64,000 nt of DNA from Anaerolineaceae bacterium. GTDB lineage: Bacteria; Chloroflexota; Anaerolineae; Anaerolineales; UBA11657. Under the pieces are notes generated by a model. The model worked only from the letters and a program-made list of their open reading frames with translations. It had not been told where the DNA came from and did no database searches. The first letter of the stretch is position 1; each line of letters opens with the position of its first letter. The position numbers were made by a program, and so were the translations under genes. This document shows, piece after piece, positions 7,917 through 28,085 of this stretch. The stretch covers positions 192,315 to 256,314 of the forward strand of contig BGOS01000003.1 of NCBI GenBank assembly GCA_003569365.1, given 5' to 3'.

Positions 7917-9317
7917 GTGGCGATGCTATTTGCGCGCAATGCAGCGCTGCTGGTTACGATGGACGATGCGCGCCGTGAGATAGCGGGCGGTGCCTTGGTA
8001 GTGCGGGACGGCTGGATAGATGCGGTTGGCCCCTCGGAAATGTTTGCGGTTGAGCCGGGAGCGACAGTATTGGATCTTACGGGGCACATTGTGATCCCCG
8101 GATTAGTGAATACGCACCATCATCTTTATCAAACGCTTACGCGCGCAGTGCCGGCTGCGCAGAACGCCAACTTGTTTGGCTGGCTGAAAACGCTCTATCC
8201 AATCTGGGCGCGCATGGGTCCGGACGCTGTATACACAAGTGCGTTGGTGGGAATGGCGGAGCTGCTGCTTTCCGGATGCACAACCATCAGCGACCATTTG
8301 TACATGTTTCCCAATGGCGCGCGGCTGGATGATGAAGTGCGCGCAGCGCAGGAGATTGGTGTGCGCTTTCACGCCTCGCGCGGCTCAATGAGCCTGGGCG
8401 AATCGCAGGGTGGCCTGCCGCCTGATCGCGTGGTGGAGCGCGAGCCGGCAATACTGCGCGATTGTCTGCGGGTGATCGAGCAGTTTCATGATCCCAAGCC
8501 GGGCTCAATGCTGCGCGTGGTTGTGGCGCCGTGTTCTCCCTTTTCTGTCAGTGCCGGCTTGATGCGCGAGTCGGTTGAACTGGCGCGCAGTCACGGCGTG
8601 CAGCTGCACACGCATCTGGCCGAAACGCTGGATGAGGAACTTTTTTGCGAACAGAAGTTTGGGCACCGGCCAGTGGCTTATGCCGAGGAGCTGGGTTGGA
8701 CGGGGCCGGATGTATGGTTTGCGCATATGGTGCACGTGAGTGCGCGCGAAATTCCGTTGCTGGCGCAGGCAGGCTGCGGGCTCGCTCATTGCCCGTCGTC
8801 GAACATGCGGCTCGCGTCAGGCATTGCGCCAATTATGGACTATCGGCGGGCGGGCGTGAAGGTGGGTTTGGGTGTGGATGGATCTGCATCCAATGATGGC
8901 AACCACATGTTGCTGGAGGCGCGGCAGGCCATGTTGTTGGCGCGCTTGAAGCTGGCTGAGGACGAACGGCAGGCGCATGCCAGCGGCGCCAAGAGCGCAG
9001 CGGCACCGCAGATGACGGCGCGCGAGGCGCTGGAGATTGCAACGCTCGGCGGCGCAAGTGTGTTGGGCCGCACGGACATTGGCGCGCTTGCGCCCGGCAT
9101 GTGCGGTGATTTTGTGGCGTACAAACTGGACCGGCTGGCTTTTGCCGGCGCACAAGCAGATCCTTTGGCTGCGCTTTTGTTTTGCGCGCCGCAGCAGCCG
9201 GATGTGGTGGTTGTAAATGGACGGGTGCTTGTGCAGGATGGACAGCTGACTACGATTGACCTGCCACCTGTGATTGAGCGGCACAACCGGATTTCGATGG
9301 AGATGATTAACGGGTGA
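7917..9317 (+). CDS. Amidohydrolase-superfamily deaminase, 8-oxoguanine deaminase / SsnA-like
   Basis: 466 aa. Motifs IPGLVNTHHHLYQTLTR (HxH metal site), LHTHLAETLDE, AHCPSSNMRLASG, GLGVDGSASND. From memory it is colinear over nearly its full length with 8-oxoguanine deaminase-type enzymes. Start is GTG 7917 or ATG 7923. Confidence 0.85.
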   Translation: MAMLFARNAALLVTMDDARREIAGGALVVRDGWIDAVGPSEMFAVEPGATVLDLTGHIVIPGLVNTHHHLYQTLTRAVPAAQNANLFGWLKTLYPIWARMGPDAVYTSALVGMAELLLSGCTTISDHLYMFPNGARLDDEVRAAQEIGVRFHASRGSMSLGESQGGLPPDRVVEREPAILRDCLRVIEQFHDPKPGSMLRVVVAPCSPFSVSAGLMRESVELARSHGVQLHTHLAETLDEELFCEQKFGHRPVAYAEELGWTGPDVWFAHMVHVSAREIPLLAQAGCGLAHCPSSNMRLASGIAPIMDYRRAGVKVGLGVDGSASNDGNHMLLEARQAMLLARLKLAEDERQAHASGAKSAAAPQMTAREALEIATLGGASVLGRTDIGALAPGMCGDFVAYKLDRLAFAGAQADPLAALLFCAPQQPDVVVVNGRVLVQDGQLTTIDLPPVIERHNRISMEMING

Positions 9318-9423
9318 CGCGGGTGGGCACGATGCGTGTCGGAGCCGGTTGGCGGTGCTTGACATACGCTATGATTGAGATGCGAGCGGCGGTGATCTGC
9401 CAGTTTGCCAGGGAGGATCTTAG

Positions 9424-10413
9424 GTGAAACGAGTCGCACTTTATTTGCAGGATGCACATTCGCTGCAGGACGGTATTAAGTATGCGCAGTATGCGGAGGC
9501 GCATGGGTTTGAGGCCGTGTGGCAGGCCGAAAGCCGGCTGGTGCGGGATGCGATTGTTCCGATGGCTGCGTTTGCGGCCACTACGTCGCGCATCAAGATC
9601 GGCTCGGGTGTCATCAACAACTGGACGCGCAACATCGGGCTGCTGGCGTCCACTTTTTTGACGCTGGATGACCTGGCTCCTAACCGCATCATTTGCGGTA
9701 TTGGTGCGTGGTGGGACCCACTCGCAGCAAATGTGGGTATCGAGCGGCGGAAACCGCTGCTTGCCATGCGCGAAACAATTGAAGTGTTGCGGCGCTTGCT
9801 TGCCATGGAGAACGTCACGTTCGACGGTGAGTTTCACAAAGTGAAGGGAATTGAGCTGGATGTGGTGCACGGTCGGCGCGAGCCGCGCAACGTCCCGGTG
9901 TTCATTGGCGCCACTGGCATGAAGATGATGGAGATGACCGGTGAAATTGCGGATGGCGCGGTGTTGAACTATTGCGTGCCGCCAGAGTACAACGATGACG
10001 CGATGGAGCAGCTGGCCGCCGGGGCCAAGCGCGCTGGCCGCAGCATGGATGAGATAGACCGGCCGCAGCTGATCGTGTGCTCGGTGCACAAGGACCGGGC
10101 GGTGGCGATAACTGGTGCGAAGCGCTTGCTCACGCAGTATCTGGCGCAGCAGCCGCACATTGCAAAGGCCTCCGGAGTTAGCGCCGACGTGGTGGGCAAG
10201 GTGCAATCTATTTTGGGCTGGCCCGCAACAAAAGAGCAGGTTGAAGAGGCGATGCAATTTGTGCCGGACGATTTCGTTTTGAAGATAAGTGCCACGGGTA
10301 CGCCGGATGAAGTGCGTGCGCGCGTGCAGCAATATATTGACCGGGGTTGCACCTGTCCCATTTTGTATCCGATGGGCGATCCGTATCTTATGATGGACAC
10401 GTTTGCAGTTTAG
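9424..10413 (+). CDS. LLM-class (luciferase-like) flavin/F420-dependent oxidoreductase, Mer-like
   Basis: 329 aa. GTG start 7 nt after GGGAGGA. The luciferase-like TIM-barrel pattern ([12 protein letters not shown]..., [35 protein letters not shown]) is typical of F420-dependent LLM enzymes. Cofactor assignment is an inference. Confidence 0.75.
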
Positions 10414-10466
10414 TATGCGGTTTGGGTCTGCAGCAGAACATTTAACAACGAGCGAAATCATATATT

Positions 10467-11672
10467 ATGAAACCAGCTGAAGTGGCAGCAGTGCAAGCGC
10501 GTGTGGCCGCGGCCAAGCCGAAGATCGTGCAGTTTTTGCGCGAGCTGTGCGCAATTCCTTCAATGGAAAGCAAGATTGGGCCGGTAGGCGAGCGGGCTGC
10601 AGCCGAGATGCGCGGGCTCAAGTTCGACGAAGTCCGTTTTGACAAGATGGGCAATATTCTGGGCCGCATCGGCAGCGGGGCGCGCACGATTGTTTTTGAC
10701 TCGCACATTGATACGGTTGGCATTGGCGACCCGTCGGCGTGGGGTTGGGATCCTTTTGCGGGCAAGGTGGAGGATGGCGTACTGTACGCGCGCGGCGCCT
10801 GCGATGAGAAGGGCAGTACGCCGGGCATGATTTACGGGATGGCAATTGCTCGCGACCTGGGTTTGCTGGAAGGCTGGACCGCTTATTATTTTGGCAACAT
10901 GGAAGAGTGGTGCGACGGGATTGCCTGCAACACTTTTGTGGAGGTGGACCCGGGCGTGCGGCCGGACTTTGTGGTTATCGGCGAGCCGACGCGCATGCTG
11001 GTATACCGCGGGCACAAGGGCCGGCTGGAGATGAAGGTGACGGCGCGCGGTCGCAGTGCGCATGCAGCCAGCAATCATTTGGGCGATAACGCAATTTACA
11101 AACTGCTGCCCATCATCGAGGCGATCAAGAACATGGAGCCGCAGCTGGGCGACCATGAATTCCTCGGCCACGGCAAGATTACCGTGTCTGACATGCATGT
11201 GAAGACTCCCAGTATCAATGCCGTGCCGGATGAAGCCACAATTTTTATTGACCGGCGGATGACGTTCGGTGAGACGAAGGCAGCGGTGCTGGCGCAGATT
11301 GAGGCATGTATCCCGGTGGCAGTGCGCGACAGCGTCAAACTGGCTGAGCTTTTCTACGATGACCCTTCATACACCGGCTATGTGTTTCCGGTGGAAAAGT
11401 ATTTTCCGGCATGGGCGTTCCCCGAGGACCATCCGCTGGTACAGGCGGGGCAGGCCGCACGCGGCGTGATCGGGCTGGCTGCTGCGCCTGCGAGTAAATG
11501 GAACTTCAGCACGAACGGAATCTATTGGGCGGGCAAGGCGGGCATTCCTTCCATTGGGTTTGGTCCCGGGGATGAAGTTACGGCGCACACCGTAAATGAT
11601 TCTGTGTCGTTGGCTGATGTGGTGAAGGCAACCGAGTTCTATGCGGTGCTGGCGAGCCAGATTCCGCTTTAG
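10467..11672 (+). CDS. YgeY-family M20 metallopeptidase/deacylase
   Basis: 401 aa. M20 metal and catalytic motifs FDSHIDTVG, ARGACDEKG, VIGEPT, GHKGR, plus C-terminal GFGPGDEVTAHTVNDSV. Resembles E. coli YgeY-type hydrolases overall. Confidence 0.85.
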   Translation: MKPAEVAAVQARVAAAKPKIVQFLRELCAIPSMESKIGPVGERAAAEMRGLKFDEVRFDKMGNILGRIGSGARTIVFDSHIDTVGIGDPSAWGWDPFAGKVEDGVLYARGACDEKGSTPGMIYGMAIARDLGLLEGWTAYYFGNMEEWCDGIACNTFVEVDPGVRPDFVVIGEPTRMLVYRGHKGRLEMKVTARGRSAHAASNHLGDNAIYKLLPIIEAIKNMEPQLGDHEFLGHGKITVSDMHVKTPSINAVPDEATIFIDRRMTFGETKAAVLAQIEACIPVAVRDSVKLAELFYDDPSYTGYVFPVEKYFPAWAFPEDHPLVQAGQAARGVIGLAAAPASKWNFSTNGIYWAGKAGIPSIGFGPGDEVTAHTVNDSVSLADVVKATEFYAVLASQIPL

Positions 11673-11700
11673 GGCTTTACGCACAGTTTGCTATTAAGTC

Positions 11701-12651
11701 ATGGCTGAGGGGCGGCTGGCTGTTGTGGCGGTGGGTGGCAACTCGCTGATTACTAGCAACACGCAGCGTTCGGTGCCGGATCAGTTTGATGCGGCTGCGG
11801 TATCAATGCGTTACGTGGCGGACATGGTCGAAGCCGGCTGGCGCGTGGTGCTAACGCACGGCAACGGACCGCAGGTGGGTTTTATTTTGCGGCGCTCGGA
11901 GTTGGCGCTGCATGAGCTGCATCCCGTGCCGATGGATTATGCGGTTGCTGACACGCAGGGTGCCATCGGGTACATGTTTCAAAAGGCGCTGCTGAATGAA
12001 TTTAGCGCGCGCGGGATGCAGCGCGCTGTGGCAACCGTGGTGACCCAGGTGCGGGTGGATGAGGACGACGCGGCTTTTACTGATCCCGCAAAGCCGATCG
12101 GTTCGTTTATGGATGAGGCAACTGCCCGCAAGCGCGAGGCTGAGTTAGGTTGGCGGGTGAGGGAAGATTCTGGTCGCGGCTGGCGCTGGGTGGTGCCTTC
12201 GCCAATGCCGCGCGAGATCATAGAGTTGGCCTCAATCCGGGTGCTGTCCCAAAGCGGGTGTTTGGTTGTGGCGTGCGGCGGGGGCGGTATTCCCGTAGTG
12301 CGGCGCACTGGCGGCAAGTTGCGGGGCGTGGAGGCAGTGATCGACAAGGACCATGTGTCGGCGTTGCTGGCGGAGCAGCTGGGTGCCGATCTGTTCTTGA
12401 TATCCACTGCGGTGCCGCAGGTTCTGGTGAACTTTAATAAGCCGGACCAGCGCGCTCTAGCGCGGGTGACACTTGCGGAAGTGCAGGCGCTCAACGATCA
12501 GGGACATTTTGCAAAGGGCAGCATGCAGCCGAAGATCGTGGCAATGATGCACTATTTGGAAAATGGCGGTGAGGCTGGATTGATCACGGACCCCGAGAAT
12601 ATTGGGCGGGCGCTCGCGGGTGAAACCGGTACTCATTTTGTGGTGAGGTAG
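11701..12651 (+). CDS. arcC: Carbamate kinase
   Basis: 316 aa. Motifs VVAVGGNSL, LTHGNGPQVG, ACGGGGIPV, DKDHVSALLA, FAKGSMQPKI are the classic carbamate-kinase signature. Confidence 0.9.
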   Translation: MAEGRLAVVAVGGNSLITSNTQRSVPDQFDAAAVSMRYVADMVEAGWRVVLTHGNGPQVGFILRRSELALHELHPVPMDYAVADTQGAIGYMFQKALLNEFSARGMQRAVATVVTQVRVDEDDAAFTDPAKPIGSFMDEATARKREAELGWRVREDSGRGWRWVVPSPMPREIIELASIRVLSQSGCLVVACGGGGIPVVRRTGGKLRGVEAVIDKDHVSALLAEQLGADLFLISTAVPQVLVNFNKPDQRALARVTLAEVQALNDQGHFAKGSMQPKIVAMMHYLENGGEAGLITDPENIGRALAGETGTHFVVR

Positions 12652-12896: not shown

Positions 12897-15311
12897 ATGA
12901 AAGTATCGAAAATGTTGAACGGGTTGGTGGCTGGTGCCGTGCTGTTGGGTGCTTGCGCTGCGCCGCCTGCCCCGGCTGCGGTGGTTGCGCCAACGGCAGT
13001 GCCGGCAGCGGTTCCCGAAGGCAAGAAGATGGAGATCTTCAGCTGGTGGACGAATGGCGGTGAAGCCGATGGCTTGAACGCGATGTTCGAGATCTTTACG
13101 GCGAAGAATCCGGACACGGAGATTATTAATGCGACAGTCGCCGGTGGCGCGGGCACAAATGCGAAGACCGTGCTGAAGACGCGTTTGCAGGGCGGCCAGC
13201 CGCCGGACACTTGGCAGGTGCATGCTGGCAAAGAGTTGACGCAGTATGTTGATGCCGGGCAGATGGAGCCGTTGACTGGCTTCTTCAAAGAGCAGGGCTT
13301 TGACAAGAACATGCCGCAACTGCTGCTGGATCAAATTACATACAACGGTGAGATTTATTCGGTGCCGGTGAACATTCATCGCTCCAATGTGCTTTGGTAC
13401 AACATCAAGGTGTTTGGCGATAACAATATTACGCCGCCGACGACGTTTGAAGAGTTTTTTGCAGTGGCTGACAAGCTCAAAGCTGCGGGCATTATTCCGC
13501 TGGCGGTGGGTGGTGCCGACAAGTTTGAGGCACCGCATCTCTTTGAGAGCGTGCTGCTGGGTGTTTACGGCCAGGATGACTATGTGAAGTTGGTTGGCGG
13601 CGATGCGGCGTTGTGGGCTGACGCGCGTCTGGATACAAGCATCAACACTCTGGCGCGCATGCTGTCCTACTCCAATGATGACCGGGCTTCGATTGGCTGG
13701 TCCAGTGGCGCAGACATGGTGCTGGAGGGCAAAGCGGCCATGACGATTATGGGCGACTGGGCGCATGGTTACATGATGAGCAAAGGCGCAGCGGCTGGTA
13801 CTGATTATGGTTACGCGCCGGCGCCTGGCAATGGCGGCGTGTTTATGTGGCTGAGCGACAGCTTCGGGCTCGCAAAGGGTGCACCGCACCCGGAAGAGGC
13901 GAAAGCGTGGCTGGCGGTGGCTGGCTCGCGCGCCGGGCAGGATGCCTTCAATCCAAAGAAAGGCTCCATTCCGGCACGCACCGACGCAGACCAAAGCCTG
14001 TACGATGTATATCTTAAATATTCCATCAAGAGCTTTGGTTCTGACAAACTTGCGCCGAGCATTGTGCACGGCGCTGGTGCACCGGAACCGTTCATGGCGC
14101 TCTACGGCAATGCGTTGAATGTGTTCTCAAGCGACTTGGATGGCGAGGTGTTGAAGAGCTCGCTGGTGGAGGCGACTGCTGAGCTTGGCGCCAAGGACGT
14201 AACAGCCGCCGCATTTGCCAAAGAAATCGTGGCGGGCTTGATTATGGTGGGCCCGGAACGGGACCACGGCTGGAATGAGGCGCATCTTATGGCGACAGAT
14301 TATGTGACGGGCAAGATGCCCAATGTGCGCTGGGTGATGATCGACAAGGTTAATGGAGCAGACCGGCCCGACACCACGATCGAGCAGCTTGCGGATGATT
14401 TTGCGGCGAAGGGCGCGCAGATTATTTTCACTAATTCGGCCGAGTTCAAGGACCCGACAAATAATGCGGCGAAGGCGCATCCCGAGATTACCTTCATTCA
14501 CATTTCTGGCGATGCAGTGAAAGACGGAACTGCGGCGCCGAATGTGGGCAACTTCATGGGCCGTATGGAGTCTATGAAGCACGTGTCCGGGTGTGCGGCG
14601 GCGCTGCAGACGAGCACTGGCAAGATATCCTATCTTGGCCCGTTGATTGACGCAGAGACGCGGCGGTTGGTGAACAGTGCTTATCTGGGCGCGAAATACT
14701 GCTGGGAGAAGAGTGGTAAGAAGGCGTCGGATTTGAAGTTCGACGTTACATGGATTGGGTTCTGGTTCAATATCCCGGGATTTACGCTGGATCCCACCCA
14801 GGTGGTGAACGATTTCTACAATTCCGGTTCGGATGTAGTCTTGTCTGGCATTGATACCACCGAGGCTGTGGTTGTGGCTGGCCAGCGCGCCGAAAAGGGC
14901 GAAAAGGTTTACGCTATTCCATACGACTATCTGGCTGCGTGTGCCGAAGCTCCAAAAGTGTGCCTCGGCGTCCCCTACTTCAACTGGGGCCCACTGTATC
15001 TCTCGGCTGTGAAGGGTGTGGGTGAGGGAACGTGGAAACAGTCTTGGGATTGGGCAGGTGCGGACTGGGCTGACATGAAGAATCCGGATACGGGCACTGT
15101 GGGTTGGGAAAACGGCGGTGGGCTGAGCGCTGCCAATCAGGCAACGCTCGATGGCTTTATCAAGGAGCTTGCCGGCGGCCTCAACCTGTTTACCGGCCCG
15201 CTAAAGTATCAGGATGGAACGGAGTTCGTGGCGAAGGATGCGGTGGCTTCAGACGAGCAAGTCTGGTATACGGAGCAGCTCTTGGCGGGTGTTAAAGGCG
15301 CTTCGAAGTAG
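12897..15311 (+). CDS. Lipoprotein fusing two different ABC solute-binding domains: N-terminal family-1 (sugar-type) SBP and C-terminal BMP/PnrA-type (nucleoside-type) SBP
   Basis: 804 aa. GGAGGAG RBS. Signal peptide with lipobox LLGAC. Residues ~40-440 resemble an extracellular solute-binding family-1 protein (FSWWTNGGEADGL..., GDWAHGYM). Residues ~455-804 resemble a BMP-family SBP (IMVGPERDHGWNEAH, LFTGPLKYQDGTE). Confidence 0.85.
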   Translation: MKVSKMLNGLVAGAVLLGACAAPPAPAAVVAPTAVPAAVPEGKKMEIFSWWTNGGEADGLNAMFEIFTAKNPDTEIINATVAGGAGTNAKTVLKTRLQGGQPPDTWQVHAGKELTQYVDAGQMEPLTGFFKEQGFDKNMPQLLLDQITYNGEIYSVPVNIHRSNVLWYNIKVFGDNNITPPTTFEEFFAVADKLKAAGIIPLAVGGADKFEAPHLFESVLLGVYGQDDYVKLVGGDAALWADARLDTSINTLARMLSYSNDDRASIGWSSGADMVLEGKAAMTIMGDWAHGYMMSKGAAAGTDYGYAPAPGNGGVFMWLSDSFGLAKGAPHPEEAKAWLAVAGSRAGQDAFNPKKGSIPARTDADQSLYDVYLKYSIKSFGSDKLAPSIVHGAGAPEPFMALYGNALNVFSSDLDGEVLKSSLVEATAELGAKDVTAAAFAKEIVAGLIMVGPERDHGWNEAHLMATDYVTGKMPNVRWVMIDKVNGADRPDTTIEQLADDFAAKGAQIIFTNSAEFKDPTNNAAKAHPEITFIHISGDAVKDGTAAPNVGNFMGRMESMKHVSGCAAALQTSTGKISYLGPLIDAETRRLVNSAYLGAKYCWEKSGKKASDLKFDVTWIGFWFNIPGFTLDPTQVVNDFYNSGSDVVLSGIDTTEAVVVAGQRAEKGEKVYAIPYDYLAACAEAPKVCLGVPYFNWGPLYLSAVKGVGEGTWKQSWDWAGADWADMKNPDTGTVGWENGGGLSAANQATLDGFIKELAGGLNLFTGPLKYQDGTEFVAKDAVASDEQVWYTEQLLAGVKGASK

Positions 15312-15350
15312 TCTGTTGGGGAGTAACCCTTCAGTTTAGTGTTGTAGAAG

Positions 15351-15382
15351 CCTTGCCCCTTCCGCCGTTGGAAGGGGCAAGG
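15351..15382 (+). promoter_or_regulatory. Perfect 13-bp intercistronic stem-loop between the SBP gene and the ATPase gene
   Basis: CCTTGCCCCTTCC (15351-15363), loop GCCGTT, then GGAAGGGGCAAGG (15370-15382). No U-tract follows, so a processing/stability element or partial attenuator is more likely than a full terminator. Confidence 0.5.
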
Positions 15383-15396
15383 TGCTTTAACCTCCT

Positions 15397-16863
15397 ATGA
15401 AGATCGAGCTGCGCGAGATACACAAGCGGTTTGGCGCTGTGCATGCCAATGCGGGCATCAATCTCAGCGTCGGCACCGGTACGATTCTGGGAATTTTGGG
15501 TGAGAACGGGGCCGGCAAAAGCACACTGATGAAAATCCTGTCCGGGTATTTCCATCCGGACAGTGGCGGAATATTACTGGACGGCGCGGCAGTGCGCTTG
15601 CGTACTCCGGCTGACGCGCTGCGGCATGGCGTGGGTATGCTGCACCAGGACCCGCTCGACTTCCCCCCGATGCGCGTGCTTGACAACTTTCTGCTGGGAC
15701 GCGAGCACCAGTTCTGGCAGCGCCGCAGCGCTGCGCGCGCTGATTTCGATGCACTCTGCAGCGAGTTTGAATTCCGGCTGGATCCGGATGGTTTTATGTT
15801 TGATCTGACGGTTGGCGAGCGCCAGCAGCTGGAGATTGCGCGCTTGCTGTGGCTGGGCGCCCGGGTGCTCATTTTGGACGAGCCAACAACTGGTATATCG
15901 GCCAATCAGAAAGTAAAGCTGTTTGCCACGCTGCGCAAACTGGCTGCTCAAAACAAGACCGTGATCTTTGTGTCGCACAAGCTGGAAGATGTAGAAGGCT
16001 TGTGCGGGCGGGTGGCGGTGTTGCGGCGGGGCGCGCTGGTGGGTGAGGCGCAGCCGCCGTATACAACTGCCGGCCTCGTGCAAATGATGTTCGGCCAGGC
16101 GTTGGCAGTTGGGGTGCGGCCGGCAGCGCCATTGGGCGCACCACAGCTGGAGTTGCGCGGAGCTGAGTTTGCAGGTGAACATATTGTGCTGCGCAATGTG
16201 GACCTTACGGTGGCTGCGGGGGAGGTGGTCGGTCTTGCCGGTCTGGAGGGTTCCGGTCAGCAGCAGCTGTTGAAAGGGGTGGCAGGTTTGGTTGCGCTTG
16301 GCAAAGGCAGCTTGAAGATTGGAGGGCGTGATCTGTCACAGGCATCTTACAAGGAATTTTTAGCCGCTGGTACCGCGTTCATGGCGGCGGACCGGCTGGA
16401 AGAGGGAATGATTGCGGGGCTTACGATCGAAGAGCACATGGTGCTGGCACGGCGCGGCAAGCAGCCGGCAATTGTGGATTGGGCAGTTGCGCGAACGGCT
16501 GCGCAGGCGGGCATCGCGGAGTTCAATATCAAGGGCGCTCCAGCTAGTGTGGTGGAGGGGCTTTCGGGTGGCAACCAACAGCGCGCGCTGCTGGCGTTGC
16601 TACCGCCGGCTCTCAAGCTGCTGGCAATGGAACATCCGACGCGTGGACTGGATGTTGAGTCTGCCATCTACATTTGGAGCAAGCTGCTCATGCGGCGGGC
16701 GGAGGGAACCGCAATACTTTTTGCCACCGCAGATTTGGAAGAGCTGCTGCGCTATAGTGACCGGGTGCTGGTATTTTTTGCCGGTGAGATCATGGCTGTG
16801 CTGCGCGCGGCGGATGCCACGGTTGAGCAGCTTGGCGCGCTAATCGGGGGCAAACAAAAATGA
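15397..16863 (+). CDS. ABC transporter ATP-binding protein with duplicated NBD (sugar/nucleoside CUT2-type)
   Basis: 488 aa. Walker A GENGAGKST, Walker B LILDEPT, a second NBD with the signature LSGGNQQR. Stop overlaps the next start (ATGA at 16860). Confidence 0.9.
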   Translation: MKIELREIHKRFGAVHANAGINLSVGTGTILGILGENGAGKSTLMKILSGYFHPDSGGILLDGAAVRLRTPADALRHGVGMLHQDPLDFPPMRVLDNFLLGREHQFWQRRSAARADFDALCSEFEFRLDPDGFMFDLTVGERQQLEIARLLWLGARVLILDEPTTGISANQKVKLFATLRKLAAQNKTVIFVSHKLEDVEGLCGRVAVLRRGALVGEAQPPYTTAGLVQMMFGQALAVGVRPAAPLGAPQLELRGAEFAGEHIVLRNVDLTVAAGEVVGLAGLEGSGQQQLLKGVAGLVALGKGSLKIGGRDLSQASYKEFLAAGTAFMAADRLEEGMIAGLTIEEHMVLARRGKQPAIVDWAVARTAAQAGIAEFNIKGAPASVVEGLSGGNQQRALLALLPPALKLLAMEHPTRGLDVESAIYIWSKLLMRRAEGTAILFATADLEELLRYSDRVLVFFAGEIMAVLRAADATVEQLGALIGGKQK

Positions 16864-17939
16864 GCAGTCTGGCAGCGACTGAGCGGCAGGGATGGGTTGG
16901 GCGTGTGCTGCTGGTGCTTGGCCCGGTGCTGCTGGCGCTTGTGATCACCTCTGGAATACTTGTACTGGCGGGCGCCAACCCACAAGCAACTTTGCTCAAG
17001 CTGTTAGCAGGCTCTTTTGGAACAGCGGTGAAGCGCGCGGATGTGGCGGTTGTGTGGGTGTCGCTGGTTATTTGTACTGCGGGCTTGCTGGTGAGCTTTA
17101 CTGCCGGTCAGTGGAACATCGGCATGGAAGGGCAGATTGTGATGGGGGCAATAGTTGCAACGTGGGTTGGCCGGCAGTTTGTGGACATCTCCGGTGTTCT
17201 CGAGCGCGGGGCACCGCTTTTGGTAATTGCAGCAATGGTTGCAGGCGGCATTTGTGGCGGCGTGGTGTGGGCTACCGCAGCCGGCGCATTGAAAGTGCTC
17301 GGCAAGGTGCATGAAATATTTGCGGGCCTTGGCTTGAATTTTGTTGCCAGTGCCGCAAGCATCTATCTGATTTTTGGCACTTGGAAGCAGAAGTCCGGCG
17401 GCACATTGAGTGGCACTGTTTTGCTTGACGAGCAGCTGTGGCTGCCAACGCTGCAGGGTTTGCGGGCGAGCCCATACTCGCTGGGGCTGGCGGTGGTTGT
17501 TGTTGCGGCGGTCTATTTCGCGTTGCGGGGCACGCTGTGGGGCTTGCAGTTGAAGGCGGTGGGCCGGAACCTGCGCGCGGCCCGCACGCTGGGTGTCGCC
17601 ACTCACCGGGTGCTGTTTAGCGCCTACGCTGTTTGTGGAGCGTGCGCGGGCCTCGCGGGCGCTGTGCTTGTGGTTGGCGTGCATCATCGCTTGATACCGG
17701 GCATTTCCTCCGGGCATGGCTTTATGGGTATTCTGATTGCGTTGCTTTCCGGGTTTCAGGCGCTTTACATTGCGCCGATTGCGCTTTTCTTTGCGGCACT
17801 CAGCATCGGAAGCATTGCGCTGCAGCTGGATCTCAAACTCGATTCGTCGCTTGCGGGTGTGGTGCAGGGAGTGATGGTGCTGTGTGTGCTGCTGGTGCAA
17901 GGGGTGCGCCAGTGGCGGAGTGGCGGGTCCGGCACATGA
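16860..17939 (+). CDS. ABC transporter permease (BMP/ribose-type, first of two)
   Basis: 359 aa and highly hydrophobic (~8-10 TM). Translationally coupled on both sides. Confidence 0.85.
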   Translation: MSSLAATERQGWVGRVLLVLGPVLLALVITSGILVLAGANPQATLLKLLAGSFGTAVKRADVAVVWVSLVICTAGLLVSFTAGQWNIGMEGQIVMGAIVATWVGRQFVDISGVLERGAPLLVIAAMVAGGICGGVVWATAAGALKVLGKVHEIFAGLGLNFVASAASIYLIFGTWKQKSGGTLSGTVLLDEQLWLPTLQGLRASPYSLGLAVVVVAAVYFALRGTLWGLQLKAVGRNLRAARTLGVATHRVLFSAYAVCGACAGLAGAVLVVGVHHRLIPGISSGHGFMGILIALLSGFQALYIAPIALFFAALSIGSIALQLDLKLDSSLAGVVQGVMVLCVLLVQGVRQWRSGGSGT

Positions 17940-18958
17940 GCGAAGTGGTTTTGATTGCAACGCTGGCGTCAATTCTCGCGGACAGCGCGCCAATAATTTT
18001 TGCTGCACTTGGCGAAACCCTGAACGAGCGTGCGGGTGTCGTCAATCTTTCGGTTGAGGGCACAATGATGCTCAGTGCCATGATAGGGTTTGCTGCAGCG
18101 TTTGTATTGGACGGCTACGGGCCAATGCTGTTTATGGGCACTGACCTTGCGCCCTACATCACGGTTGCAGCTGGTTTCGCGGCTGCAATGCTGGCGGGCG
18201 CGCTGATTGCGCTGGTCGTTGCATTTGGCAGCATTACCCTGCGGCGTGATCAGGTTGCAGTGGGTTTCATCATGACCCTGCTGGCGATAGATTTGAGCTC
18301 GTTTGCCGGTGTTAATTTTGTGCGCAAGCCTGGCCCGTCGGTCGGGCATCTGCCTATTCCCGCTCTCGCTGACATTCCTGTTGTCGGGCCAATCTTGTTC
18401 TCGCAGGATGCTGTGACTTACTTGAGCTTTTTACTAATCATTGGCATGGCAGTGTTTTTTGCGCGCACCCAGCCGGGCCTGCGGCTGCGCGGCATTGGCG
18501 AGCGGCCACAGGCAGCTTTTGCCCGCGGCACCAATGTAGTGCTGATGCGCTATCTCTATACGGCGCTGGGCGGAGCGTTGATCGGATTTGGCGGTGCGGC
18601 TTTCTCGTTGCATGTAAAGCTTGGCTGGAGCCACCGCCACACTGCGGGCTTTGGCTGGGTGGCATTGGCAATTGTAATTTTTGGCGGATGGGATCCGCTG
18701 AAGGTTGCGCTCGGTGCTTATTTCTTTGGCGCCTTGCGGGCAGCTGCAACCACGCTGCAAGCGTTGCTGCCGGCAGTGCCCGTGCAGGTGTTTCCGTTGC
18801 TGCCGTTCCCGCTGATGATCCTCACGCTGGTGATATTTAATAGTGATGGATTAGTGCGGGCACTTAGTCTGCTGCCGCTTGGGCCGCGCCGCTTTTTGTT
18901 TGGTCTCTTGCGGAGCAATCCTCCCGCAGCTCTCGGCACGCACTTTCGGCAAGAGTGA
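17936..18958 (+). CDS. ABC transporter permease (second of two)
   Basis: I chose the in-frame ATG at 17936 (MSEVVLIATLASILADSAPIIFAALGETLNERAGVVNLSVEG), which forms an ATGA overlap with the upstream stop. The longer track ORF (17633) has an implausible Cys/Arg-rich extension. Confidence 0.85.
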   Translation: MSEVVLIATLASILADSAPIIFAALGETLNERAGVVNLSVEGTMMLSAMIGFAAAFVLDGYGPMLFMGTDLAPYITVAAGFAAAMLAGALIALVVAFGSITLRRDQVAVGFIMTLLAIDLSSFAGVNFVRKPGPSVGHLPIPALADIPVVGPILFSQDAVTYLSFLLIIGMAVFFARTQPGLRLRGIGERPQAAFARGTNVVLMRYLYTALGGALIGFGGAAFSLHVKLGWSHRHTAGFGWVALAIVIFGGWDPLKVALGAYFFGALRAAATTLQALLPAVPVQVFPLLPFPLMILTLVIFNSDGLVRALSLLPLGPRRFLFGLLRSNPPAALGTHFRQE

Positions 18959-19163: not shown

Positions 19164-20441
19164 GTGGTATCGGCGGAACTTGTGAGCCAAATTAATTACG
19201 CATGCAATAGGTGCGGTCCTTTGGCGGGCCTGGCGGAGCCGGTGTATGTCTGCCCGCAATGCTGTGGCAATTTGGATGTGGTGCTGGATGTGGAACAGGT
19301 GCGGCGCTTGCATGCCCCGGGAAGCATTGGAGCTGGGACGGATGCGTCGTTGTGGCGCTACGCCGCGCTGCTGCCGGTAAAAGTGCCGCCCGCAACCACT
19401 GCAACCCTGCGCACTGTCGGTGGCACGCCGTTGTTTCCGGTTTCGCGGTTGGCGCAGCATTGCGGGCTTCGGGACGTGTGGATAAAAGATGACAGCCGCC
19501 TGCCAACGGCTTCGTTTAAAGACCGGGCGAGTGCGGTGGTGGTGGCGCGGGCGCTTGACCTGGGTTACACGCGGCTGATTACTGCATCGACGGGCAATGC
19601 CGGCGTGGCGCTGGCAGGCATGGCAGCTGCTGCCGGGCTGGAGGCGGTCATCCTCGTTCCTGAGAGCGCGCCGCCGGCCAAGATTGCACAGTTGCTCATA
19701 TTTGGAGCTCGCCTGATTCTCGTGAAGGGCAACTATGATGCGGCCTTTAAGCTGAGCCTGCAAGCGGCGCGAGAGCTGGGTATGTACTGTCGGAGCACCG
19801 GCTACAACCCGTTTACGCTGGAGGGCAAGAAGACTGCAGCTTTTGAGATCGCTGAACAGCTTGCCGCCAGTTTGGGGGGTGAGGTGCGTGAGATGTGGAC
19901 TGCGCCGGACTGTGTGTTTGTTTCCGTGGGCGATGGTAACATCATCGGTGGGGTGCACAAGGGGTTCAAGGAGCTGCATGCCCTCGGCTGGATTAGCCGG
20001 GTGCCACGTATGATCGGCGTGCAGGCGGTGGGTTCGGCGGCAATCTACAATGCGTTTGCTGCGCGGACGGATGCTATTGCGCCAGTTGACGCACACACGG
20101 TGGCGGACAGCATTGCGGCGGACTTTCCGGCAGACGGTTTGCATGGCTTGCAGGCGGCAACGCAATCGGCTGGTGCCTACCTGACTGTTACGGATGATGA
20201 AATTCTGGCTGCGATACCGGAGCTGGCGCGCTTGACCGGCGTATTTGCGGAACCGTCGTGCGCGGCGGCATACGCGGGTTTGCTAAAGGCGGCGCGCAGC
20301 GGCCTGGTGGCGGCGCACGAGCGGGTGGTGCTGCTGATAACTGGCAGCGGTTTGAAGGATGTGGCAACTGCGATGCGCACGGTTGGTGCGGCGCCGGTAA
20401 TCGCACCAACTGTTGCGGAATTGCGCCAAGCGTTGGTGTGA
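19164..20441 (+). CDS. Threonine-synthase-like PLP enzyme with N-terminal Cys4 zinc ribbon
   Basis: 425 aa. CNRCG...CPQCCG ribbon, PLP-lysine motif PTASFKDR, STGNAG, GDGNIIGG. The fold assignment is firm but the substrate is not. Confidence 0.75.
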   Translation: MVSAELVSQINYACNRCGPLAGLAEPVYVCPQCCGNLDVVLDVEQVRRLHAPGSIGAGTDASLWRYAALLPVKVPPATTATLRTVGGTPLFPVSRLAQHCGLRDVWIKDDSRLPTASFKDRASAVVVARALDLGYTRLITASTGNAGVALAGMAAAAGLEAVILVPESAPPAKIAQLLIFGARLILVKGNYDAAFKLSLQAARELGMYCRSTGYNPFTLEGKKTAAFEIAEQLAASLGGEVREMWTAPDCVFVSVGDGNIIGGVHKGFKELHALGWISRVPRMIGVQAVGSAAIYNAFAARTDAIAPVDAHTVADSIAADFPADGLHGLQAATQSAGAYLTVTDDEILAAIPELARLTGVFAEPSCAAAYAGLLKAARSGLVAAHERVVLLITGSGLKDVATAMRTVGAAPVIAPTVAELRQALV

Positions 20442-20453
20442 GGAGTTGACTGC

Positions 20454-21278
20454 GTGAAAATTTTGATTGCAGCGGACATGGAGGGCGTCACCGGCGTTGT
20501 GAACTGGGATCACGTCGATCCGGCGCACGCTGAGTACCAGCGATTCCGCCGGTTGATGACCGCCGATGTGAACGCTGCGGTATGCGGTGCGTATTTAGGC
20601 GGAGCCTCCGCGGTTACGGTAACGGATGGACATTGGGGCAACCGTAATATTTTGATTGAGGAACTTGAAGAGCGGGCGACGTTACAAAGCGGTGGCACGC
20701 GCCCGCTGGCTATGGTTCAGGGTGTCGAAGCGGATGTGGCGGGTGTTTGCTTTGTGGGGTACCACGCGCGGGCTGGTTCGCAGTATGCTGTGCTGGACCA
20801 TACATGGTCTGACACCACTGTAGCCAACTTGCGGTTGAACGGAGAGGTGGTTGGCGAGATCGGCCTGAATGCTGCGGTGTGCGGCCACTTTAATGTTCCA
20901 GTGGTTATGATCTCTGGCGATCAGACTGCGTGCAAAGAGGCGCTTGAGTTGCTGGGCGGGCTGGAAGTGGCAACAGTGAAGCAGGCGCAAGGGCGGATGG
21001 CAGCAGACTGCCTGCCGCCGGTGGTTTCGCAGCGCCGCATCTGCGAGGCGGCGGCGCGCGCAGTTGCGCGCGTGGTGGCGGGAACCGCACCCGCGCCGTT
21101 TCGGCTGGTGCTGCCAGTGATGGTTGAGATTGAGTTTATGCAGTCTGACATGGCGGACCGCGCGAGTCTGGTTCCGGGCAGCCAGCGCGGGGCCGACCGC
21201 TGCGTGCAGTTTGAGGCACGCGATATGCTTGCGGCTTATAACGCGTTCAGAACATTGTGTGCGACATCGCGCAACTAG
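20454..21278 (+). CDS. M55-family metallopeptidase (DppA-type D-aminopeptidase)
   Basis: 274 aa. GTG start. The N-terminus MKILIAADMEGVTGV plus GYHARAG and EIGLNAA are typical of the M55 family. Confidence 0.85.
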   Translation: MKILIAADMEGVTGVVNWDHVDPAHAEYQRFRRLMTADVNAAVCGAYLGGASAVTVTDGHWGNRNILIEELEERATLQSGGTRPLAMVQGVEADVAGVCFVGYHARAGSQYAVLDHTWSDTTVANLRLNGEVVGEIGLNAAVCGHFNVPVVMISGDQTACKEALELLGGLEVATVKQAQGRMAADCLPPVVSQRRICEAAARAVARVVAGTAPAPFRLVLPVMVEIEFMQSDMADRASLVPGSQRGADRCVQFEARDMLAAYNAFRTLCATSRN

Positions 21279-21299
21279 CAATGGTCAAGGATACAACAA

Positions 21300-22766
21300 A
21301 TGATTGATTTGACGGTGGATCGGAAGACTGTGGAGCGCAATGCAAAACGCGCGCGCGAGCGCAACGTGCTTATTCCAACGCTGGCGCAGCAAGTTGCGCC
21401 GCAGACGGCGCCTGCAAAAATTCGAGAGCGGCTGAAAGGCATTGGGCTGTGGGACGTGGATCCCGCAAATTTGTTCCGGATCTCGTGGCATAACGCGCCG
21501 GCTGCGCGTGGCGGCGGGTTCGGTCCGGTGAATTACATCGAGTTTCCGTCGAGCATCACCGGGGTGCAGGCGCGCATCGTCGCGATTGTGGGCAAGTGGT
21601 TTCCCACTGGTGCGCACAAGGTGGGTCCGGCATTCGGCTGCTTGGTGCCGCGGCTGGTGAGCGGCCAGTTTGATCCCACGCGTCAGAAGGCGGTGTGGCC
21701 TTCAACCGGCAACTATTGCCGCGGCGGTGCCTATAACTCCGCCTTGCTGGGTTGCGAGTCCGTGGCCATCCTGCCGGAGGGCATGAGCGCGGAGCGCTTT
21801 GAGTGGCTGCAAACGATGGCGGGTGAAGTAATAAAGACGCCTGGATCCGAAAGCAATGTCAAAGAAATTTTTGATAAGTGCAATGAACTGCGCAAGTCTG
21901 GAACCGACCTGATGATCTTTGATCAATTTCAAGAGATGGGCAACTACCTCTGGCATTATTCCGTGACCGGCCGGGCACTGGAAGAGGTGGTGCGCCGATC
22001 GCTCGGCAGCGGCGATTCGTTTGCCGGTTTTGTGAGCCACACGGGTTCGGCCGGCACGATTGCGGCGGGTGATTATTTGAAGCAGCAGTTTCCGCACAGC
22101 AAGATTGTTGCAAGTGAGGCGTTGCAGTGTCCAACGTTGATCCAGAATGGTTTTGGGGCGCACCGGATCGAGGGCATTGGCGACAAGCATGTGCCGTGGA
22201 TTCACAACATCCGCAATACGGATATGGTAATGGCGGTGGATGATGACGCGGCAATGGCGATCACGCGACTGTTCAATGAGCCGGCGGGGCAGCGTCTGCT
22301 CGCCGGGAAGGGAGTGCCGGAGGCACTTGTGACGCGCCTTCCAGAACTTGGTATCTCATGTGTGGCTAATTTAATTGCGTCTATTCAATTCGCCAAGTGG
22401 TACGAGCTTGGGCCCAACGATGTGGTGGCCACCGTGCTCACGGACTCGATGGAGCTCTATCAAAGCCGCCTGCGTGAGCTAACAGAGCAGCACGGCGAGT
22501 TTGATGACCGCGCCGCGGCGGTGGCTTACGAGCGCCATCTTTTAGGTGCGCATACGGCCAATGTGCAGGAGCTGACGTACCCCGAGCGCAAGCGCGTGCA
22601 TAACCTTAAGTACTTTACATGGGTGGAGCAACAGGGCAAGGCAACGGCGGAGTTGAACGCGCAGTGGGAGCAGACTTCGTTTTGGACCGGAGTGCAGGGC
22701 CAGATGGGGGAAATGGATGCGTTGATTGATGAATTCAATGGCCGCTCCGGGTTGGCGGAGAACTGA
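21300..22766 (+). CDS. Long-form PLP-dependent enzyme of the Trp-synthase-beta/cysteine-synthase fold
   Basis: 488 aa. Probable PLP lysine in FPTGAHKVGPAFG, then STGNYCRGGAYNSALLG. Carries a ~90-aa N-terminal extension and a ~120-aa C-terminal extension relative to cysteine synthases. Confidence 0.7.
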   Translation: MIDLTVDRKTVERNAKRARERNVLIPTLAQQVAPQTAPAKIRERLKGIGLWDVDPANLFRISWHNAPAARGGGFGPVNYIEFPSSITGVQARIVAIVGKWFPTGAHKVGPAFGCLVPRLVSGQFDPTRQKAVWPSTGNYCRGGAYNSALLGCESVAILPEGMSAERFEWLQTMAGEVIKTPGSESNVKEIFDKCNELRKSGTDLMIFDQFQEMGNYLWHYSVTGRALEEVVRRSLGSGDSFAGFVSHTGSAGTIAAGDYLKQQFPHSKIVASEALQCPTLIQNGFGAHRIEGIGDKHVPWIHNIRNTDMVMAVDDDAAMAITRLFNEPAGQRLLAGKGVPEALVTRLPELGISCVANLIASIQFAKWYELGPNDVVATVLTDSMELYQSRLRELTEQHGEFDDRAAAVAYERHLLGAHTANVQELTYPERKRVHNLKYFTWVEQQGKATAELNAQWEQTSFWTGVQGQMGEMDALIDEFNGRSGLAEN

Positions 22767-28057: not shown

Positions 28058-28085
28058 GTGATGAATTGGTTTAAGGTGGAGCGGC

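Follow-up and report, generated by a model that had tools for sequence, protein, structure and literature searches.

The chemistry and enzyme order of the reductive uric-acid (2,8-dioxopurine) pathway were solved in 2025 (10.1101/2025.04.24.650524; PMC12507026). The E. coli and Clostridium gene cluster comprises ygeWXY-hyuA-yqeA plus ygfK-ssnA-ygfM-xdhD (10.1101/2025.04.24.650524; PMC12507026), and in Chloroflexota SsnA clusters a putative F420 reductase of the luciferase family has been explicitly noted and proposed as a stand-in for YgfK/UacX (PMC12507026). A separate group of enzymes, the 8-oxoguanine deaminase / N2,N2-dimethylguanine hydrolase / AtzB cluster (PMC13054789) of the amidohydrolase superfamily (Hall et al. 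2010, as represented in papers citing it), removes the C2 amino group from guanine analogues to yield xanthine or urate, and those of its members that have been characterised act, by their descriptions, as stand-alone enzymes in detoxification or secondary metabolism.

The 64 kb of Anaerolineaceae DNA analysed here (the window) carries eleven co-directional genes, g1–g11, on the plus strand between positions 7917 and 22766, all found where an earlier note had placed them and separated by short gaps (Table 1). Divergent genes for Wzy_C membrane proteins lie upstream of the block and htpG lies downstream. The block is an Anaerolineae (Chloroflexota) form of the gene cluster for anaerobic breakdown of uric acid and purines. 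Since the ring-opening and carbamoyl-transfer genes of its relatives have been lost from it, the block is of interest as a variant of a system already known and is not a new pathway, and, judged on the sequence seen, it is not self-sufficient. We hold with moderate confidence that it is a set of operons for the uptake and anaerobic degradation of purines (guanine analogues or urate), representing a stripped-down, lineage-specific form of the reductive uric-acid/2,8-dioxopurine pathway.

Table 1. Genes of the block, with window coordinates and the profile match behind each assignment
Feature	Position	Strand	Assignment	Evidence
g1	7917..9317	+	amidohydrolase, 8-oxoguanine-deaminase/AtzB group	NF006055, 670.8 bits (cut-off 532)
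g2	9424..10413	+	LLM-class oxidoreductase (Bac_luciferase)	PF00296, 224.6 bits
g3	10467..11672	+	YgeY-family M20 hydrolase	TIGR03526, 459.2 bits (cut-off 321.5)
g4	11701..12651	+	carbamate kinase (CK)	NF009007, 364 bits (cut-off 266)
g5	12897..15311	+	804-aa lipoprotein binding protein, SBP_bac_1 fused to Bmp	Pfam
g6–g8	15397..18958	+	ABC importer: double ATPase and two BPD_transp_2 permeases	
double ABC ATPase	15397-16863	+		
BPD_transp_2 permeases	16860-17939, 17936-18958	+		
g9	19164..20441	+	threonine-synthase-family PLP enzyme, fold type II	PALP, 253.8 bits
g10	20454..21278	+	M55 (DppA-like) D-aminopeptidase	PF04951, 310.8 bits
g11	21300..22766	+	488-aa CysK/CBS-like PLP enzyme, helical N- and C-terminal extensions	PALP, 61 bits

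Conservation of the block and gene content around YgeY

The architecture of the block recurs unchanged in at least 20 metagenome contigs and its arrangement is kept in diverged relatives at 86–95% amino-acid identity. Comparison of g1–g8 with diverged relatives yields dS values of 0.8–1.5 and dN/dS values of 0.03–0.08, showing that these genes are under strong purifying selection.

We compared the block with 80 Chloroflexota loci around YgeY homologues, 46 of which extend at least 6 kb to either side of YgeY. Within these 46, CK is found at 35 loci, a g1-type deaminase on the same strand at 31, an adenine-deaminase-like enzyme at 30 and an ABC ATPase at 27 (26 on the same strand). A carbamoyltransferase gene follows YgeY in 60/61 Chloroflexota loci and CK lies downstream of YgeY in 48/61. 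SsnA, Xdh, UacX, YgfK and BMP importers are also present among the 80 loci, where no YgeX-like or HyuA-like gene was found (0/80). The grouping of genes around YgeY is not due to chance. YgeY, carbamoyltransferase and CK form a conserved Chloroflexota core that is joined to purine modules, namely Xdh, SsnA, one of YgfK, UacX or LLM, adenine-deaminase-like enzymes and BMP importers. Membership of the genes in the ygeY/carbamate-kinase purine-catabolic family, together with a BMP-type importer, had been suggested by the earlier note and is borne out. The two findings that the note had named as speaking against it, restriction of the grouping to one genome and an unrelated role such as an arginine deiminase setting, were thus not obtained, as the grouping is widespread in other genomes across the 80 loci and an arcA/arcB context was not found.

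The block itself is unusual in that it is without carbamoyltransferase, SsnA, adenine-deaminase-like and Xdh genes and combines a deaminase with an LLM enzyme. The latter combination occurs in none of the 80 species representatives, which counts against the favoured reading. Searches of the whole 64 kb by tblastn, using E. coli YgeW, YgeX, HyuA, YgfK and SsnA as well as Chloroflexota carbamoyltransferase, SsnA and adenine-deaminase-like proteins, returned weak paralogy only, so that the reported absence of YgeW, YgeX, HyuA and XdhD/YgfK extends over the window. Its single Xdh-family Mo subunit (31525-33957) stays under all Xdh cut-offs, sits among acyl-CoA genes and was rejected as an Xdh module. 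A full non-orthologous rebuild, as earlier envisaged, therefore does not hold, because the block has no candidates for the carbamoyltransferase, SsnA, adenine-deaminase-like and Xdh steps that relatives keep.

Importer, deaminase and putative reductase

The BMP-type ABC importer encoded by g5–g8 would take in a purine base or nucleoside. Its binding protein g5 has a sugar-type SBP_bac_1 domain at the N-terminus (aa 56–348) and a BMP/PnrA-type Bmp domain at the C-terminus (aa 445–678; both Pfam), preceded by a single signal peptide with a lipobox-like LLGAC motif. No in-frame stop was found inside g5, the fusion recurs in diverged relatives as well as in independent assemblies, and the stand-alone binding proteins that relatives have share 51% identity with the Bmp half. 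The closest match of g6–g8 is the transporter of L056, a locus of the LLM-plus-SsnA (type-B) clusters, with 64–72% identity.

The amidohydrolase g1 had been taken for an SsnA-type enzyme, an assignment that we reject: g1 scores 139–144 bits against the SsnA models (cut-offs 444 and 455) and shares 26% and 27% identity with E. coli SsnA and a true Chloroflexota SsnA, respectively, whereas it passes NF006055 ('8-oxoguanine deaminase') and matches the PDB entries 3HPA (583 bits) and 7WW2 ('8-oxoguanine deaminase', 540 bits) over its full length. By these profile and structure matches, g1 is classed as an exocyclic deaminase of the 8-oxoguanine-deaminase/AtzB group, and the supposed hallmark trio is thereby left without a ring-opening member. 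Orthologues with 55–65% identity are present in 46 of the 80 Chloroflexota relatives. In contrast to the stand-alone characterised enzymes, g1 is embedded in a catabolic operon, where it would deaminate a 2-amino-purine to urate or xanthine; 8-oxoguanine, guanine and N2-methylated guanine are candidate substrates.

The top NCBIfam matches of g2 are all F420 LLM families, all under their cut-offs, and its PDB matches are to Mer and FGD only. A homologue (87% identity) adjoins cofC, cofE and fno-type genes, and g2 is probably F420-dependent. Because g2 is 80–85% identical to the LLM enzymes that adjoin YgeY in true SsnA clusters (L049, L056, L079 and L088), we consider it a candidate purine-ring (2,8-dioxopurine) reductase, which would use F420H2 in place of YgfK/UacX.

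Ureido cleavage, carbamate kinase and the PLP enzymes

Both g3 and g4 exceed curated cut-offs, in agreement with their earlier identification as YgeY and carbamate kinase, and are 41.5% and 43.5% identical to E. coli YgeY and YqeA, respectively. Homologues of g3 with 72–80% identity occur in 80 Chloroflexota genomes. From its family, g3 is predicted to cleave ureido/N-carbamoyl groups and would hydrolyse the ureido group that remains, yielding 2,3-diaminopropionate, while g4 would convert carbamoyl phosphate to ATP. The preceding steps are not encoded in the block: opening of the ring by SsnA, followed by a hydantoinase-type step, and phosphorolytic removal of one ureido group by carbamoyltransferase. 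They would have to come from other parts of the genome or be circumvented. A gap of 28 nt separates g3 from g4, where relatives have the carbamoyltransferase gene, and none of 55 CK-containing relative loci lacks it. With the transferase and the ring-opening enzymes lacking, CK is left with no encoded source of carbamoyl phosphate, which counts against the favoured reading.

The loss of the transferase with retention of CK would be explained if the block served nitrogen and carbamoyl salvage and not energy conservation, with carbamate from YgeY being phosphorylated by CK at the expense of ATP and the resulting carbamoyl phosphate feeding the synthesis of arginine and pyrimidines. The close YgeY–CK adjacency with no transferase between and the purifying selection on CK (dN/dS 0.05) are consistent with this, and carbamate-kinase-like enzymes are anabolic in some hyperthermophilic archaea. 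We nevertheless regard salvage as very unlikely, since the transferase stays beside CK in 55/55 CK-containing relatives, in keeping with the ATP-forming direction that has been demonstrated for YgeW and YqeA, and no sign of a missing carbamoyl-phosphate synthetase was seen in the window.

In the favoured degradative reading, the PLP enzymes g9 and g11 would replace YgeX, converting a β-substituted alanine, either diaminopropionate or β-ureidoalanine, to pyruvate and ammonia. Against the model for DAP ammonia-lyase, g9 scores 60 (cut-off 276); it stays under NF006050 (272; cut-off 303) and passes the thrC equivalog TIGR00260 (183.4 bits; cut-off 167.1). It could thus simply be threonine synthase, which again counts against this reading. 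A ThrC-like gene follows the second importer permease in about 12 of 14 relative loci with enough sequence. For g11, which reaches 99 bits against the cysK model (cut-off 351), the AF2 model (pLDDT 83) has a β-replacement (CysK/CBS) core that aligns with CysK, CBS and β-cyanoalanine synthase at a target-normalised TM of ~0.8; the lysine of its TGAHK motif is invariant. Homologues of g11 (42–67% identity) occur in YgeY clusters and are paired with g9 homologues in L091–L093. ThrC-like and CysK-like genes form a recurrent pair in YgeY clusters, none of which has YgeX, and the pair probably takes over the YgeX step.

The thrC match of g9 and the name 'cysteine synthase' given to g11 in source databases would also suit a juxtaposition of functionally separate units with no common pathway: a deaminase detoxifying oxidised guanine, a nucleoside salvage importer, a CK for arginine/citrulline metabolism, biosynthetic threonine-synthase and cysteine-synthase-like enzymes, and a peptidase. 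Taken as a pathway, the cluster is not complete, and gaps of 245 nt before g5 and 205 nt before g9 possibly reflect more than one transcript. Such an assembly is improbable, given that same-strand co-occurrence around YgeY recurs over dozens of genera, that the ThrC-like/PALP488 (g11-family) pair was found in purine-type contexts (Xdh, SsnA and YgeY) in all three independent look-ups, and that the examined loci showed neither an arcA nor an ornithine carbamoyltransferase context.

Between the two PLP genes, the M55 peptidase g10 (216.7 against NF058634, cut-off 430) is a lineage-specific addition, kept by two diverged relatives (L094 and L095) and present in 0/80 YgeY-locus relatives, at a position that holds unrelated insertions in other genomes. 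Its part in the pathway is doubtful, it is probably a passenger, and its earlier listing among the replacement components is not supported. A larger role for M55 would follow if the block encoded a pathway complete in itself that acts on some other N-heterocycle, for instance a pterin-like compound, a modified guanine or an isocytosine-like base. The Mer-like F420 enzyme would then act jointly with the AtzB-cluster amidohydrolase, SsnA and carbamoyltransferase would be unneeded, and ring opening or ureido cleavage would fall to g1, YgeY or M55, the last as a hydrolytic replacement of the transferase comparable to UacY for YgeW in C. difficile. Carbamoyltransferase loss and M55 gain coincide in the lineage and both states are maintained, purifying selection acts over the whole block, the solved structures closest to g2 are those of Mer enzymes, which act on a pterin, and AtzB-cluster enzymes are promiscuous, with many guanine analogues and leaving groups accepted (PMC13054789). 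We consider this unlikely, however, as the similarity of g1 to orthologues from LLM-free clusters and to the 8-oxoguanine-deaminase homologue 3HPA does not point to a new function, M55 occupies a site of unrelated inserts, and the retention of CK would be unexplained if ureido groups were merely hydrolysed.

Comparison with described and recurrent clusters

The block shares with the E. coli/Clostridium cluster YgeY and carbamate kinase, the theme of purine catabolism, an anaerobe-type lineage and the presence of fold-type-II PLP enzymes at the end. It is without SsnA, HyuA, YgeW/UacY, YgeX, YgfK/UacX and XdhD, and has instead the F420-type LLM, the 8-oxoguanine-deaminase-type feeder enzyme, the ThrC-like/CysK-like pair and the M55 peptidase, with a BMP ABC importer in contrast to the XanQ/UacT-type permeases.

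The block also resembles the type-B clusters. The earlier remark that it was not recognised as described holds only in part: a 2025 paper (PMC12507026) had already drawn attention to the LLM-plus-SsnA form. The full order is seen in L088 (Xdh, BMP-ABC, PALP460, LLM, YgeY, carbamoyltransferase, CK, SsnA [508 bits; cut-off 444] and adenine-deaminase-like). As in the block, the LLM lies directly upstream of YgeY, and CK, the BMP-type importer and a PALP488-family enzyme (42–43% identity) are shared. Carbamoyltransferase, true SsnA, the adenine-deaminase-like amidohydrolase and Xdh subunits are found in type B and not in the block, and the site of PALP460 is taken in the block by the 8-oxoguanine-deaminase-type enzyme.

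A common Anaerolineales arrangement (type A), of which our literature search found no published description, consists of 8-oxoguanine-deaminase-like, adenine-deaminase-like, GntR, YgeY, carbamoyltransferase, CK, BMP ABC and ThrC-like genes. Type A and the block share, with gene order and strand preserved, the g1 orthologue, YgeY (~78–80% identity), CK, a BMP importer and a ThrC-like gene, whereas the adenine-deaminase-like gene, the GntR regulator and the carbamoyltransferase are found in type A and not in the block, and type A is without an LLM; the position of GntR in type A corresponds to that of the LLM in the block.

The eleven-gene block and its flanks

The cluster consists of eleven plus-strand genes (g1–g11) separated by short gaps and is bordered by divergent Wzy_C membrane-protein genes upstream and by htpG downstream; profile searches confirmed the gene list and coordinates proposed in the earlier note. 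On the upstream side, three Wzy_C membrane-protein genes of ~1040 aa each stand in tandem; here a 1043-aa Wzy_C-domain protein is broken into two ORFs by a 1-nt insertion that three other assemblies of the same organism lack.

Coordinates of features in the window and in the comparison loci (L numbers)
Feature	Sequence	Coordinates	Strand	Remark
Wzy_C ORF	window	1526-2857	-	
Wzy_C ORF	window	2760-4679	-	
1-nt insertion	window	~2855		
Region 5' of g1	window	7804-7922		
Gene block g1–g11	window	7917-22766	+	
g5 binding protein	window	12897-15311	+	single 804-aa lipoprotein, one signal peptide
g5–g6 intergenic hairpin	window	~15348-15390		
ThrC-like–PALP488 gap	window	20454-21278		holds M55
Flavin monooxygenase/PNPOx pair	window	24807-26385		
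Flavin monooxygenase ORF	window	24807-25838		
F420-type PNPOx ORF	window	25609-26385		
Acyl-CoA gene region	window	27407-35309		
Xdh-family Mo subunit	window	31525-33957		
Amidohydrolase	window	34086-35309		passes NF006689
Type-A locus, example	L008	5997-20820		
F420/SsnA-like block	L089	3646-9989		
Adenine-deaminase-like gene beside SsnA	L088	14533-17729		
ThrC-like–PALP488 gap	L091	7190-11479		
ThrC-like–PALP488 gap	L092	7499-11467		
ThrC-like–PALP488 gap	L027	17573-20981		

The architecture of the window is found in at least 20 metagenome contigs as well as in the diverged relatives L086, L087, L094 and L095, with 86–95% protein identity. Comparison of g1–g8 with L086 gives dS values of 0.8–1.5 and dN/dS values of 0.03–0.08, on the basis of which a decaying remnant was rejected. 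Because the arrangement recurs in metagenome contigs and diverged relatives and has low dN/dS, it is neither an assembly accident nor a product of decay.

No regulator gene is present within the g1–g11 cluster, no riboswitch or other Rfam element reaches the gathering threshold, and promoter and terminator scans performed no better than on shuffled sequence. The region 5' of g1 is 74% identical to its counterpart in a diverged relative, similar to the 70% of the g5–g6 gap and clearly higher than the 45–65% of four other intergenic gaps; its conserved blocks, TTTTGTAAAGGTGA and GCGCGGTGTAAACTT, may represent a promoter or operator. The g5–g6 gap, between the binding-protein and ATPase genes, contains a strong GC-rich hairpin (AAGCCTTGCCCCTTCC...GGAAGGGGCAAGGTGCTT) that is kept in L086 despite diverged flanking bases and may act as an intra-operon attenuator or mRNA stabiliser.

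The deaminase, the LLM protein and the importer

The amidohydrolase g1 belongs to the 8-oxoguanine deaminase/AtzB cluster (amidohydrolase subtype III): it scores highest on NF006055 ('8-oxoguanine deaminase'; 670.8 bits, cut-off 532) and aligns over its full length with two solved homologues of 8-oxoguanine deaminase, 3HPA (583 bits) and 7WW2 (540 bits). The SsnA-type identity assigned in the earlier note is not borne out by HMM scores, PDB matches or pairwise identity. g1 reaches only 139 to ~140 bits on the SsnA models (IPR017700/TIGR03314; cut-offs 444–455.5), compared with 486–508 bits for the genuine Chloroflexota SsnA of L088, and its identity is just 26% with E. coli SsnA and 27% with a genuine Chloroflexota SsnA. 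Pa0142, the N2,N2-dimethylguanine hydrolases and AtzB act promiscuously, hydrolysing guanine analogues at their C2 substituent, and the 8-oxoguanine deaminase/AtzB family has several native substrates (PMC13054789). Since this group acts on the C2 substituent, g1 is best read, from its sequence, as a feeder enzyme that would make xanthine or urate rather than as a ring-opening enzyme.

The top NCBIfam matches of the LLM protein g2 are all F420-dependent LLM subfamilies, every one of them below its cut-off, and the only solved relatives in the PDB are Mer and F420-dependent glucose-6-phosphate dehydrogenases. g2 is 80–85% identical to LLM proteins encoded within true SsnA clusters, and neither YgfK nor UacX has a match in the window. 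We suggest that g2 is a putative Chloroflexota-type F420 LLM and a candidate purine-ring reductase in place of YgfK/UacX. A Chloroflexota cluster variant with LLM and SsnA is mentioned in PMC12507026, beyond which a literature search found no paper linking SsnA with F420.

Several further F420-related genes were observed. In L089, a g2 homologue (87%) lies among SsnA-like, fno-like, cofE, PNPOx, cofC, 4HBT thioesterase and XdhC genes, a block that makes a direct connection between F420 biosynthesis and the SsnA/LLM pair. In the window, an F420-type PPOX-class gene passes the TIGR03618 cut-off. The flavin monooxygenase and F420-type PNPOx ORFs of the window overlap in different frames, and their counterpart in L094 is a single 525-aa gene with FAD_binding_3 and PNPOx_N domains; the window either has a frameshift here or shows a genuine split.

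Genes g5–g8 encode an importer of the BMP/PnrA nucleoside type, comprising a Bmp domain, a tandem-ATPase subunit (g6) and two BPD_transp_2 permeases (g7 and g8). The binding protein g5 fuses a sugar-type SBP_bac_1 domain (GlcS-like, 119 bits) to a BMP/PnrA-type domain, and an SBP_bac_1 domain was found in none of the 80 related clusters. We rejected an assembly artefact as the origin of the fusion, given the single signal peptide, the lack of an internal stop and the recurrence of the fusion in independent assemblies and diverged relatives. In the reading that we favour for the cluster, the importer would take up purines.

The YgeY, carbamoyltransferase and carbamate kinase core in Chloroflexota

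The product of g3 is a YgeY-family ureido hydrolase (TIGR03526, 459.2 bits, cut-off 321.5; 41.5% identical to E. coli YgeY) and that of g4 a carbamate kinase (NF009007, 364 bits, cut-off 266; 43.5% identical to E. coli YqeA). Scanning a single genome for each species returned 545 relatives of g3, of which the best 80 (72–80% identical), nearly all labelled Chloroflexota and mostly from Anaerolineales plus Chloroploca, were used; the 80 loci were compared by tblastn, ORF clustering and profile annotation. What looked like two or three YgeY copies in each cluster was a clustering artefact, the extra members being a GntR/UTRA regulator and a histidine-phosphatase-like protein.

The core conserved across the Chloroflexota loci comprises YgeY, a carbamoyltransferase (CT) and carbamate kinase. 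In 60 of 61 loci, the CT gene lies no more than 4.5 kb downstream of YgeY, as does the kinase gene in 48 of 61; the kinase without CT occurs in none of 55 loci. The CT of the relatives is an OTC-like protein of 326 aa that scores below all curated OTC cut-offs (260.9 versus 306). The carbamate kinase of the window stands without CT, and it could be anabolic, using carbamate released by YgeY, which we consider very unlikely. Neither arcA nor a catabolic ornithine carbamoyltransferase is present in the window, nor did arcA turn up among the gene families annotated around the relatives' loci; thus, the arginine deiminase (arcABC) context that the earlier note had named as a competing role for the kinase is not what surrounds it. 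Neighbourhood clustering, also proposed there, shows that the gene families co-occur around YgeY across Chloroflexota loci, and an accidental juxtaposition of separate functions in the window is improbable.

The core is joined to different sets of genes. Type A, seen in 31 of the 46 loci with full flanks, combines a g1-type deaminase, an adenine-deaminase-like amidohydrolase (TIGR01178, 506 bits, cut-off 472.5), GntR, YgeY, CT, carbamate kinase, a BMP-type ABC importer and a ThrC-like enzyme, with no reductase, Xdh or SsnA within 10 kb; no published description of this cluster was found. Type-A loci (L001–L048 and others) are widely conserved in Anaerolineales. Type B (L049, L056, L079 and L088), the variant that PMC12507026 mentions, contains Xdh, BMP-ABC, PALP460, LLM, YgeY, CT, carbamate kinase, true SsnA and the adenine-deaminase-like protein, and type C (L075 and L077) contains Xdh, YgeY, CT, carbamate kinase, a ThrC-like enzyme, PALP488 and a YgfK-like protein. 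The Chloroploca form has a UacX-like reductase with Xdh and SsnA. No YgeX-like or HyuA-like gene is present in any of the 80 loci. We note that the adenine-deaminase-like gene adjoins SsnA or the g1-type deaminase (L088, L049 and L056), and that its scores of 464–506 bits straddle the TIGR01178 cut-off; its product is a candidate replacement for the HyuA hydantoinase step.

The window resembles type B in its LLM protein (80–84%) and importer (64–72% identical to that of L056), type A in its deaminase g1 (55–65% identity) and type C in its PLP pair. A g1-type deaminase and LLM occur together in none of the 80 species representatives. The cluster in the window is without CT, SsnA, the adenine-deaminase-like gene, GntR and Xdh. 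Across the 64 kb, tblastn with E. coli YgeW, YgeX, HyuA, YgfK and SsnA (taken from NC_000913), and with the Chloroflexota CT, SsnA and adenine-deaminase-like proteins, detected only weak paralogues. The absences of YgeW, YgeX, HyuA and XdhD/YgfK listed in the earlier note hold for the whole stretch. Neither YgeW nor the 326-aa CT has a tblastn match in the window, leaving no CT or UacY there for the second ureido group; HyuA has none, and SsnA has none in the 64 kb besides the sub-cut-off score of g1. The only Xdh-family gene, lying downstream of the block, is unlikely to be the missing XdhD, with 435 bits against a cut-off of 780 and an acyl-CoA context. It encodes an Xdh/4-hydroxybenzoyl-CoA-reductase-family Mo subunit, below all cut-offs and with no adjoining FAD or FeS subunits, that follows enoyl-CoA hydratase, RidA, acyl-CoA dehydrogenase and acyl-CoA ligase genes and precedes an amidohydrolase gene. 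Nothing purine-related lies at 38–64 kb of the window.

PLP enzymes and the relation to reductive urate degradation

The window lacks YgeX and has two other fold-type-II PLP enzymes, g9 and g11. The ThrC-like g9 passes the thrC equivalog TIGR00260 (183.4 versus 167.1 bits) but falls below NF006050 (272 versus 303 bits), and its relation to YgeX is distant (NF006058, 60 bits, cut-off 276; 28% identical over 204 aa). The ThrC-like gene lies directly 3' of the importer in ~12 of 14 type-A loci with enough sequence, and its keeping this position in purine operons points to a predicted specialised role of g9. The 488-aa PALP enzyme g11 (PALP488) is a distant relative of CysK, with only a 46-residue local BLASTP match to E. 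coli YgeX and no match to the DAP ammonia-lyase family. Its family comprises at least 8,000 proteins, with typical identities of 67–70%, named only 'cysteine synthase' or 'PLP-dependent enzyme'. The lysine of a TGAHK motif is invariant. An AlphaFold model of g11 (pLDDT 83) has a CysK/CBS/beta-cyanoalanine-synthase core (TM-score ~0.8, normalised to the target), flanked by helical N- and C-terminal extensions for which there is no structural match.

The ThrC-like/PALP488 pair had a purine-type context in all three unrelated look-ups: BMP-ABC with Xdh; ABC with an amidohydrolase; and SsnA-like, Xdh, M20, a 396-aa OTCace and YgfK-like proteins. As the last intermediates of the known pathway are beta-substituted alanines and YgeX is absent throughout these loci, we infer that the pair is a natural candidate for the YgeX step. 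The gap between the two genes often holds unrelated genes, such as a GT2 glycosyltransferase, an IS4 transposase, small ORFs or, in the window, M55 (examples in the table), and seems to be a hot spot for insertions within a conserved pair. The M55 peptidase g10 occurs in none of the 80 species representatives and, although retained in this lineage, is doubtful as a pathway member because its slot so often holds unrelated genes. It is unlikely that the block forms a route complete in itself for another heterocycle, in which M55 would take the place of CT.

We favour, by a little over an even chance, the interpretation of the cluster as an operon of the reductive-urate family for the uptake and catabolism of purines, pared down in a single Anaerolineae lineage; the purine-catabolic variant envisaged in the earlier note is partly supported, without its SsnA. 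Such an operon would supply the importer, a guanine-analogue deaminase, a putative F420 enzyme for ring reduction, the terminal ureido hydrolase, carbamate kinase and, in place of YgeX, a PLP pair, and the ring-opening and transferase steps would be encoded elsewhere or bypassed. A bolder proposal, and an improbable one, is a shortened route needing neither SsnA nor CT, in which the AtzB-family enzyme and the Mer-like F420 reductase would use new chemistry to open the ring of a purine or pterin-like compound, the remaining amide cleavages would fall to M55 or YgeY, carbamate kinase would capture YgeY-released carbamate directly, and the ThrC-like/CysK-like pair would be a previously unknown disposal of diaminopropionate or beta-ureidoalanine.

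The window itself is a curious variant and establishes no new principle. In environmental Chloroflexota, a conserved YgeY/CT/carbamate kinase core is joined to alternative upstream modules; all 80 relatives do without YgeX and HyuA, for which the ThrC-like/CysK-like pair and the adenine-deaminase-like amidohydrolase are the obvious candidates, and one lineage maintains under selection a version without CT and SsnA. Through these candidates, functions could be given to three large protein families whose annotation is poor or missing, and the candidates also bear on the proposed F420-dependent purine reductase.

The reductive urate pathway was solved in two 2025 studies, for gut Proteobacteria and Firmicutes only, and proceeds in the order XdhD, YgfK or UacX, SsnA, HyuA, YgeW, YgeY and finally YgeX, where YgeW yields carbamoyl phosphate that YqeA uses to make ATP (10.1101/2025.04.24.650524; PMC12507026). 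The window shares YgeY and carbamate kinase with that cluster, but is without SsnA, YgeW/UacY, HyuA, YgeX and XdhD/XdhAC. The earlier note did not recognise the arrangement as described; the pathway family and the F420 twist have in fact been published, whereas what is new is the architecture without CT and SsnA that is kept under selection, together with the recurrent ThrC-like/CysK-like pair.
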